Assembly: GCA_035084275.1 (NCBI GenBank)
Contig: CM068750.1
Coordinates: 5,208,001 to 5,272,000, forward strand
Source: Hydrolagus colliei
Taxonomy: Eukaryota
Direction of reading: 5' to 3'
DNA: 64,000 nt
This document shows positions 18,501 to 21,500 of the stretch, piece by piece. The translations under genes were made by a program, and so were the position numbers. How positions within the stretch are numbered: position 1 is the stretch's first letter; each line of letters opens with the position of its first letter. The notes below the pieces were generated by a model that saw only the letters and a program-made list of their open reading frames with translations, was not told the DNA's origin and ran no database searches.

Positions 18501-21500
18501 TACTGTGTATTGTGTAACATTTAATTAAACTAATTAATCAAAATAACCTGAACAATATGCTTCTATGCTTTACTAATAGCTAGCTAACCTGTGGATCACG
18601 GCCAAAGATTACTAATTAAAATATTGTCTTTGCTCACACTACAGCCTAATCTGCAGAAGATAACACTGGTACAGTGTTGTTTTAGTGTTTGTTTTAGATC
18701 TAAGGTTATTAACATATTAGCTTCTCTGCTATATTTCCCTCTTGTTGAAAGGGCAAATCTCACACTTTACTCTAATAGAGATCAAAAAGGGTGTAACATA
18801 ATTTCCTAATAAATTACAGATGTTTCCATATTTTCCTGAGAAAGATAAGACAAAGATGAGTTAGTGGTTTACTCTCAATGGTAGTCTGCAACATGTACTT
18901 TAATTGAAAGGTGTGGTAACTCATGATTGATTTTTATTTTAATAAAATTGATTGTATATGAAATTAATTTATTGTGGAAGGAGGATGCTGGAGGTAGCTG
19001 TTTGTGAGATAACAATGTATCTTTGTAGCATTGTGTTGTGAAAATACCTTTGGAGGTCAGAAACGCAGAGGGATTTCCCCCACCCCTATGTTTATTAGAA
19101 AGTTAATTGAGGATATTTTGTATTGATAAAACACTGAAACATATATGCTCAGTTTCCTTTGGTAACAGTGTCAATTGCATCAGGTAGATGCATGTTGCAC
19201 AAATGTGAGGATAAAATGAATGGTCTAATGTTGATTTGAAGAAATGATCTAGGCGATGCTGTCATGTAACCTCCTGCTTTTTGGGAGATTACGTTGATTT
19301 GCCATTTAGGGCACAACGCAACATACTTCAAAATCTTGGGATAAAGTGGCAAAACTGAAATTTGAACTTGGGGGAAAAAAAATGCAGCTGCCTTATTGAA
19401 GACGATGGGGGGTTGGGGCAGTGAACAAGGCTAGTGAATAGGCCCAAACATTGGATAATATATAAACTTTATTGAATTCTAATTCAATGGATTTGTGTGA
19501 ACACTGGGGCTGTTTATTCACATTTATCTAGAATACAAGACGTTGGAAGGTTTGTTAAAATGTGGTCCTTTAACCTCTTAAGAAATGGTGACTCCTATTG
19601 AAATTTATGTGTGTGGTGTGTTGAGCAGATCATTGTGAGTGTTTGCATATCTATCGTCCTAAAGTGTAAGGGAGTTACATTAATACTGAAACATCTGTAC
19701 TGACAAATTCAATTTCCTCATCAATACCTCTTATGGCAGTTCCTTACACCCCTGGTCATATCAACTCATCAACTTCTTAAACCACCAATATTAGATGAGT
19801 GACGAGCAATTAAAGGGTGCCAGCTAATATGTTTTGCAATATTTGATTCAAAAGGGATCCTGATCATAATATTAAAAAAATACTATTTTTACATTAACTG
19901 CATGAAATAAGTCAGTCAAATTTAGTGTTTAAATTTTTGCTTCGGTGTGTTTAAAGTAGGGAACGGCGATATGGGAATTTCCCGATATGGATATATCGGT
20001 TGGCTCATATCAAGATATACCGAAATATCGATATTTTCAGTTTTTTTGTACTGCGCATGCGCGCGCGCATTGGAGTGCGTGCGCATTCCGGGTGCGCGCG
20101 CATTCGGGGCCTATCTTCTCAGAAGGTAAATATCTTCCTCTCTCTGTGTCTCTCACTCTCTCCATCTCTGTGTTTTTCTGTCTGTGTCTCTCTATGTCTC
20201 TCTCCCTCTCTCTTCTCTCACATCCCCCCCCATCTCTATCTAACTGTATATCACATCCACCCCGTCTCTCCCCCCCGTCCCTCTCTCGCACCCCCCACCA
20301 CCCCCCCAGCCGTCTCTCTCCCCCTCTCCTCCTCCCCCCCCCCGCCGTCTCTCTCTCCCTCCCCCCCCAGCCGTCTCTCTCTCCCTCCCCCCCCCAGCCG
20401 TCTCTCTCCCCCTGCCCCCAGCCTTCTCTCTCCCCCTCTCCTCCCCCCCCCCCTCCTTCCCCCCCCCTCTCCTCCCCCCCCAGCCGTCTCTCTCCCCCTC
20501 TCCCCCCCCAGCCGTCTCTCTCCCCCTCTCCCCCCCAGCCATCTCTCTCCCCCTCTCCCCCCCAGCCGACTCTCTCCCCTCTCCCCCCCCCAGCCGTCTA
20601 TCTCCCCCTCCCCCCAGCCATCTCTCTCCCCCTCTCCTCCTCCCCCCAGCCGTCTCTCTCCCCCTCTCCTCCCCCCCCCCAGCCGTCTCTCTCCCCCTCT
20701 CCCCCCCCCAGCCGTCTATCTCCCCCTCCCCCCTGCCGTCTCTCTCCCCCTCACCCCCCCCCCCCAGCCGTCTCTCTCCCCATCACCCCCCCCCCCCCCC
20801 CCAGCAGTCTCTCTCCCCCTCACCCCCCCCCACCCACAGCCATCTCTCTCCCCCCACCCCTTGCATACCTGTATATTGTATACGAGGACTATGAATACAA
20901 GATGGCGGCTTTGCACCTCGGTCTGTGCATTGTGTATAGAGATGAGCATTCTGGGTCTTGTAGTTGATTGTGCTCGCATCCCAATTTTTTACCTCGATAT
21001 ATCGTTTTTTCGATATATCGATATTTTTAAAACGTCTATATCGGCATATTGATATGAAAATCATATCGGGTTTTAGCGATATATCGATATATCGCCGTTC
21101 CCTTGTTTAAAGTATGCAAAAATGTACTGTATTGCTGGATCTGCAAGACTTGACTGTGAAGAAAGATAAATATGTAATTTGCTGATTGATGTTCCACAGG
21201 TTACCTAGCAATTGTCAGGATCTGGTTACTTTGTCTATTGAGATAAATTGCTGAGTATTGTCGATGTATAAATTGAAGATTTATTCTAGACCTTTCTCAA
21301 AACATTTGTGCTGCTACCAAAGTAAGCTATTCATGTGATTATGCTCACAAGACATGTTAATTGGCAAATTAATGCCAATGTTTGTTGCAAGCTAGAACTT
21401 AGTAGGAGTGAAATGTAGACTGCTGAGCTGATGTGATAAAAATTCATCATGCAAAAACATTCTTTGCGGCTATTGTTTTTTACAGCCCAGATTTGGACTA

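Follow-up and report, generated by a model that had tools for sequence, protein, structure and literature searches.

Here we show that the element located at positions 19957-21104 of the window (the whole stretch of 64,000 nucleotides that was analysed) is a chimera, in which the ends of a hAT transposon surround the remnant of a P-element MITE. In the reading we prefer, to which we assign a probability of roughly 85%, it belongs to a non-coding hAT-P composite family that was most likely spread by a resident hAT, generated a minisatellite of its own, and carries promoter-type motifs that are likely methylated passengers. The two origins of the sequence, both sets of 8-bp duplications, the free partners, the ladder of stages, the variation of the array and the decay of CpGs were all directly observed. 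The composite origin, a perfect M4 motif and a second family copy at 37067-37803 had gone unreported in the initial annotation, which described a "hAT MITE". This name is correct insofar as the element is a young non-autonomous hAT with a hypervariable minisatellite; a simple MITE it is not, because the remnant of a nested P element makes up three quarters of its length.

Structure and genomic setting of the element

The element has a size of 1,148 bp and is flanked, as had been claimed, by an exact 8-bp TSD (Table 1). The 16-bp TIRs that had also been described are present, but their two arms (19957-19972 and 21089-21104) are identical at only 15 of the 16 positions, the last base having changed in the window copy alone. 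Three matches to the TIR with at most three mismatches were found in the window, versus 0.08 expected. Other features of the initial annotation were recovered as well: many intact CpGs (50, with an observed/expected ratio of 1.7-1.8 at the ends versus 0.32-0.36 in the window background); subterminal CGATAT/ATATCG arrays (five words on the left and eleven on the right, compared with seven elsewhere in the window when both copies are excluded); an 11-mer at 20052-20062 and a 12-mer at 20898-20909, which we take to be the NRF1 and YY1 consensus, respectively; and a C-rich tandem array, put at ~570 bp and measured here as ~590 bp.

Both copies in the window are intronic. The first is located in an intron flanked by late exons of a gene for a TPR protein, recognised by a TPR match, which presumably is KLC1; the older one lies within an intron of ZFYVE21 (Pfam FYVE and ZFYVE21_C). 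The gene order is KLC1 (5809-21785, plus strand), a Rad51-family gene that we assume to be XRCC3 (27400-30750, minus strand) and ZFYVE21 (32724 onward, plus strand), and there is a CpG-rich divergent promoter near 32200-33100. The subterminal repeats (19966-20034 and 20971-21104) include three TATCGATA palindromes, which we take to be the site of DREF, a BED-finger factor of Drosophila, and positions 20123-20131 can be read as a candidate splice donor. A contig of a related species (run X6) departs from the window at 19632, with ~545 unlike letters thereafter; this divergence is an insertion or deletion located 320 bp to the left of the element.

Table 1. Coordinates of the hAT-P element, its components and the second family copy in the window
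Feature	Position	Strand	Remarks
TSD, left copy, GTTTAAAG	19949..19956	.	Identical to 21105-21112
hAT TIR, 16 bp, youngest type	19957..19972	+	4,127 exact genome matches, sister families included
hAT-derived end (3' end of coding element): TIR, ATATCG subterminal repeats, GC-rich 17-bp repeats	19957..20109	-	
NRF1-like motif in hAT subterminal GC repeat	20052..20062	+	Repeats at both ends of coding hAT
Remaining copy of the 8-bp duplication from P insertion	20102..20109	.	8-mer adjoins both P arms in 7 ancestral composites
Nested non-autonomous P-element remnant, one arm deleted	20110..20970	+	71-83% local matches to free P MITEs
C-rich minisatellite, G-rich on minus strand, ~28-bp unit	20270..20860	+	TRF
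YY1-like motif in P arm	20898..20909	+	Fourth base T to G in youngest subfamily
Decayed P-element TIR, ~32 bp	20939..20970	-	
Perfect M4 motif (ACTAYRNNNCCCR) inside P TIR	20952..20964	-	Two substitutions; motif according to PMC5006282
Shortened hAT-derived end (5' end of coding element), ATATCG repeats, TIR at 21089-21104	20971..21104	-	
TSD, right copy, GTTTAAAG	21105..21112	.	Identical to 19949-19956
Second, older family copy	37067..37803	-	737 bp, 4 array units, older TIR, TSD ATTTTAAG

Family size, target sites and classification

In the genome searched (1.0 Gb, one assembly), a 19-mer from the interior P arm had 6,807 exact matches and the control none; the copy number, which the initial annotation had left to a genome-wide count, is at least 6,807 (about 7,000). 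The first 94 matches on contig C1 provided a sample of 90 copies in genome order, the four omitted being young copies already sampled; 12 of the 94 have the young TIR. Both ends were called in 77 of the 90 copies, and their TSDs were exact in 53, with one mismatch in 18, two in 2 and at least five in 4, meaning that 71 of the 77 have the 8-bp TSD of hAT elements with no more than one mismatch. When exact TSDs were pooled (n=90), T was found at position 2 in 64 and A at position 7 in 69, with a central TA in 8, which gives the family pattern S-T-n-n-n-n-A-S. Since the TSD of Ac-type hATs is reported to be nTnnnnAn, as opposed to nnnTAnnn (PMC8961557, PMC3517528; see PMC12730594 for TSD lengths), the frequent T2 and A7 and the rare central TA match the Ac type of hAT. 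Membership in hAT is also apparent from the TIR and ends that the family has in common with an element encoding a hAT transposase.

The copies are not short and uniform in size, as strict MITEs would be (about 400 bp according to PMC9659126): they range from 304 to 2,066 bp among the 77 genome-order copies, and one copy measures 2,489 bp. The family behaves like a MITE in that it is non-coding, has TIRs and is present in thousands of copies. No description of the family or of its combination of motifs was found in the openly accessible literature.

The hAT parent

A hAT of autonomous type with the same TIR, an expected partner of the element, is indeed present: elements of 4.8-5.7 kb share this TIR and have 8-bp TSDs, zf-BED and hAT dimerisation domains. 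Their transposase is encoded by three exons, and a whole 180-residue probe of it matched at 14 loci (75-100%). Exon 1 of this partner shares 42% identity with a protein annotated as ZBED1-like and weakly matches Hermes. None of the eight coding loci whose frames were listed had an intact start with all frames unbroken. The left end of the window copy matches the coding copies of ~5 kb at their 3' end (75-86% over ~130-160 bp) and its right end matches coding copies at 77-88% over ~95 bp, the oldest family copies retaining ~284 bp at this side; the GC repeats with the NRF1-like motif are ordinary subterminal repeats, which the coding hAT has at either end. Elements consisting of hAT ends only (288-412 bp), that is, empty hosts, are also present in the genome. 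Because the ends are shared and the MITE and coding copies show a matched change of TIR type, mobilisation in trans by the resident ~5-kb hAT transposase appears most likely. By analogy with Hermes, whose BED domain is reported to bind clustered subterminal repeats (bioRxiv 2022.09.16.508221), the ATATCG repeats are likely bound by the BED finger.

Other hAT-related sequences were observed alongside these. A coding hAT on contig C14 (L113, C14:19444100-19454000) and its relatives have two 3' ends, in the order broken inner end, captured DNA with a GA-rich array, and new end; in this type, as in the family studied here, the sense strand of the transposase is the purine-rich strand. A sister non-autonomous family (L061 3461-5639; L063; L125-L144) has the same young TIR, retains the BED-finger part of the transposase and carries a different GA-rich tandem array. 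With best copies that are 99% identical, and 820 first-look candidates, this sister family looks younger than the one studied here. Two loci, L122 (C178) and L123 (C6:29442500-29452400), have intronless open BED/hAT frames of 667-673 aa, which we take to look like domesticated ZBED1-type genes, and at C3:104.1-104.9 Mb at least eight partial matches to the hAT dimerisation domain are clustered within 0.75 Mb.

The nested P element

In the oldest copies, the end of the interior is present twice, in inverted orientation. Seven ancestral composites have one 8-mer adjoining both inner TIRs, with 0, 0, 1, 1, 2, 2 and 3 mismatches; it is exact in only two of the seven and, since it is also part of the GC repeat of the hAT host, it is weaker as a TSD. 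The arms match over ~32 bp, so that the inner element has both the 8-bp TSD and the ~30-bp TIR of P elements. A pattern excluding the hAT context had 31 matches, and 30 of these loci were read: 17 have both arms outside a hAT (16 distinct elements), four are chance matches, one is a composite, and eight are without a called second arm. An 8-bp TSD with at most one mismatch is present in 10 of the 16 free P elements.

The same ends bound a THAP and P-transposase element at one locus (L341, L342). This 11.1-kb locus, C1:20078086-20089197, is delimited by P arms (78-88%), has a TSD of 7/8, and contains matches to THAP, P-transposase, GTP-binding and RNase H domains; an architecture of THAP, split RNase H and GTP-binding domains is described for P elements in PMC7776569. 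One free P subfamily is 95% identical to this locus over 417 internal bases, and the P arm of the window copy aligns to its 3' end (87% over 52 bases). The locus is a decayed P/THAP9-type transposon, interrupted by LINE pieces plus a zinc-knuckle/protease-like fragment. Extension of nine free-arm loci to 10 kb revealed no transposase frame among the frames listed. The window copy itself is not a mobile P element: its left arm is deleted and the tip of its right TIR is mutated.

Several candidates were rejected. The CAC end of the inner element, which we presumed to point to CACTA, Transib or Chapaev, had prompted these identities, and they were dropped in view of the 8-bp TSD; Zisupton and hAT were dropped after the P locus was found. 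A P fragment on contig C38 was left uncounted as a second parent locus; it has a hAT-composite arm at one end.

Order of events and age

Of 137 elements, 11 could not be parsed (5 others had been set aside beforehand); the tree of the remaining 126 is ladder-shaped, and 221 arm occurrences sort into nested stages. The early stages go from the free P MITE to the two-arm composite, and from there by one and then two substitutions to the perfect M4 motif; in the later ones the left P arm is lost, the hAT 5' end is shortened and an array unit appears, followed by the new TIR and the T-to-G change in the YY1 motif. We derive this order from the nesting of states and from the parents in free form rather than from rooting a tree that spans all stages. 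Age groups were defined by simple sequence rules, by which a few copies are probably misplaced. The median non-CpG divergence from the group consensus is 2.8%, 2.1% and 1.7% from the old to the young group, the last value being biased low because the young group consists mostly of top matches to the window copy. The window copy differs from the consensus at 3 of 301 non-CpG and 5 of 66 CpG positions.

A second sample of the same organism has contigs that likewise contain the left junction of the element. The family is also abundant in two related runs, and there the depth at the young-TIR position is 1-2% of that 35 bases inward, versus 20-23% in the source organism (a summed contig depth, which is a weak measure). 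The low depth in the related runs suggests that the young subfamily is lineage-specific. Contigs of the related species end short of the element's junction. For the flank, no RNA data set was listed as containing it, a result that has no bearing on expression.

Based on these stages, a P-element MITE would have inserted into a small hAT, duplicating 8 bp, and the pair would have spread to thousands of sites, most likely mobilised by the transposase of the ~5-kb hAT with the same TIRs. During the spread the left P arm would have been lost, the hAT 5' end shortened, and the G-rich array born and grown, with the promoter-type motifs riding along as likely methylated passengers.

Birth and variation of the minisatellite

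The array of the window copy consists of 17-20 copies of its unit. Array units are absent from free P MITEs and early composites, and their median number is 3, 17 and 17 in the old, middle and young groups, respectively (old versus middle, p=2e-5); the minisatellite can be traced to an origin inside the family, from low-complexity filler of the P MITE. Unit number varies from 4 to 59 in the youngest group and from 0 to 59 across paralogous copies, as in a VNTR, and the array thus is hypervariable among copies, as the initial annotation had supposed. Its proposal of G-quadruplex potential agrees with the prediction for the G strand, which has 43 runs of at least three G, four non-overlapping canonical G4 patterns and a mean G4Hunter-type score of 2.1.

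Among the 126 arrays, whose poly-C runs may carry assembly error, no two are identical and 25 have a private duplicated 45-mer. The median difference between the closest pairs of young copies is 6 units, and in the young group the difference in units is unrelated to flank distance (rho 0.008). It is likely that the array grew in the master lineage and that copies kept changing after insertion, and we infer slippage or unequal exchange as the cause of these changes. Private expansions were also seen at the same low-complexity filler in single copies (L189, L280 and L243), where other microsatellites and arrays, namely GGAT, a GGGGACAGA-type unit and GTCT, had grown.

Decay of CpGs and motifs

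The NRF1-like motif is a hAT subterminal repeat, and the YY1 motif was brought by the P arm; M4 is a motif of the THAP11/ZNF143 type (PMC5006282). The initial annotation had regarded the element as a regulatory cassette, and had named motif decay across copies, along with uniform methylation and closed chromatin, as what would refute such a role. Motif decay is what we observed. CpG transitions rise with age (3.7%, 5.9% and 10.0%) and occur at 2.8-4.6 times the rate at non-CpG C/G positions. In the YY1 motif 16 of 250 CpGs had decayed (6.4%), a value close to the 5.0-6.5% of the subterminal and GC-repeat regions (103 of 1,586 comparison CpGs in the left subterminal region and 150 of 2,367 in the GC repeat). 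The exact NRF1 10-mer is intact in 44 of 67, 14 of 27 and 13 of 32 copies of the three age groups, and in unselected young copies the M4-bearing 19-mer has 0.7% mutation versus 0.75% next door. Neither the CpGs nor the motifs, therefore, are spared from decay as they would be in a housekeeping promoter of the CpG-island type, and a regulatory role in the host is not supported. Since the motifs decay like the surrounding DNA, the copies are likely silent passengers and not gene switches.

We infer that the loss of CpGs is caused by germline methylation. The pattern fits methylated bulk DNA, similar to the TEs of the elephant shark, which are reported to be hypermethylated (PMC5437953). In exon 1 of the transposase, which served as a control, the CpG excess is 7.6-fold and 6.7-fold (from only 20 and 39 events, respectively); because the excess in the MITE is lower than this, the MITE may be partially protected from methylation.

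Alternative explanations

Could the family be a scattered set of regulatory cassettes that lie unmethylated in host introns and work there as promoters or enhancers? The three promoter-type motifs, the CpG observed/expected ratio of 1.7 in the ends, the intronic location of both window copies and the presence of the same left junction in the second sample would agree with such a role, but the CpG loss that grows with age, the YY1, M4 and NRF1 sites that mutate at the rate of their neighbours, and the hypermethylation of elephant shark TEs make it very improbable. Alternatively, the motifs may serve the element itself, in that a master copy with a perfect M4 and a better YY1 motif bound host factors, was kept open in the germline and was copied more. 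From the ancestral arm to the old subfamily, two of only six fixed substitutions over 109 arm bases perfect M4, the intermediate state is present in a few copies, and six random substitutions complete M4 in about 4 of 10,000 trials; the CpG excess below that of the transposase control points in the same direction. Furthermore, pre-motif arm states have 148 exact matches versus 6,807 for the motif-bearing 19-mer, although exact matches are lost by decay in older copies and the patterns compared are of unequal length and degeneracy. On the other hand, M4 was singled out post hoc from the many motifs that might have been considered, the early composites that carried it remained few (319 first-look candidates), the large bursts came after later deletions and array growth, and the motifs decay neutrally after insertion. 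On balance we find it unlikely that the motifs aided the element in this way. We are equally doubtful of the wider proposal that the chimera acquired the signature of a housekeeping promoter to its own advantage. In this scheme the hAT would have supplied the NRF1-like repeats, the P arm the YY1 motif, and two mutations in the dead P TIR the M4 motif; host factors would keep masters open to transposase in the germline, and the growing, G4-prone array would add to the effect.

Two further explanations concern parts of the element. The interior, which carries promoter-type motifs and is absent from the coding hAT itself, might be a captured host-promoter fragment of the Pack-MITE type and not a nested transposon. 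This explanation is largely refuted by the interior's own inverted arms, its free copies with 8-bp TSDs and its P-transposase parent, and we give it next to no credence. The interior was also considered as part of the hAT transposase loci, and this was rejected: among 21 loci, it was matched only in nearby separate MITE copies. As for the array, its differences might have been inherited from many masters or reflect assembly noise, with no change at a locus. The young copies share their array edges and, roughly, the order in which unit variants follow each other, and one assembly was read, which would favour inheritance or noise; in contrast, the lack of identical arrays, the private block duplications and the difference of 6 units between the closest young pairs render it improbable. 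The hAT-P composite with a family-born minisatellite and passenger motifs is thus the explanation that we retain.

Comparison with known systems and significance

MITEs with internal arrays, composite Pack-MITEs and SVA are already known, and one paper reportedly describes a SINE domain spread by a DNA transposon. With the Ac-family hATs, that is, relatives of Hermes and hobo with a ZBED1-like transposase, the family has in common the 8-bp nTnnnnAn TSD (PMC8961557), a short TIR and clustered subterminal repeats like those bound by the BED domain of Hermes (bioRxiv 2022.09.16.508221); it differs from them in that three quarters of its length comes from another superfamily and that its size varies from about 0.3 to 2.5 kb. 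The inner element resembles zebrafish P/THAP9 and Drosophila P, as described in PMC7776569, in its 8-bp TSD, its ~30-bp TIR, the THAP, split RNase H and GTP-binding domains, and the existence of internally deleted free copies. Unlike these, it is a P derivative without one arm that was spread by hAT ends, and its parent locus is decayed and interrupted.

Xenopus miDNA4 and Xstir-bearing MITEs are likewise reported to carry and disperse tandem repeats in their interior whose number varies (PMC12628747, PMC9659126). However, miDNA4 is a Tc1/mariner element that is proposed to have captured an existing repeat, whereas the array unit of the hAT-P family is traceable to low-complexity P-MITE filler inside the family. 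In grapevine Pack-MITEs (PMC2817404), too, MITE ends amplify an unrelated captured interior as a composite, but the interior of the hAT-P family consists of an entire transposon, nested and flanked by a TSD of its own, and not of transduplicated host DNA. Primate SVA (PMC6928650) is likewise described as composite and non-autonomous, with G4 potential and a GC-rich VNTR that is longer in younger subfamilies; SVA is a retrotransposon with tested regulatory effects, whereas the hAT-P family is a cut-and-paste element. If the chimera did evolve its promoter signature for its own benefit, it would be the DNA-transposon counterpart of SVA.

If the gains of motifs aided the spread, a non-coding DNA transposon would here have exploited host factors in a novel manner; if they did not, the family would be a tidy but modest case. 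The genome also records a once-mobile P family, and it retains every stage in the building of the composite, from the two parents in free form and the founder with its nested P element to the deletions and the birth and growth of the array. With thousands of arrays of graded age and matched flanks, the birth of a minisatellite and G4-linked instability become directly measurable.
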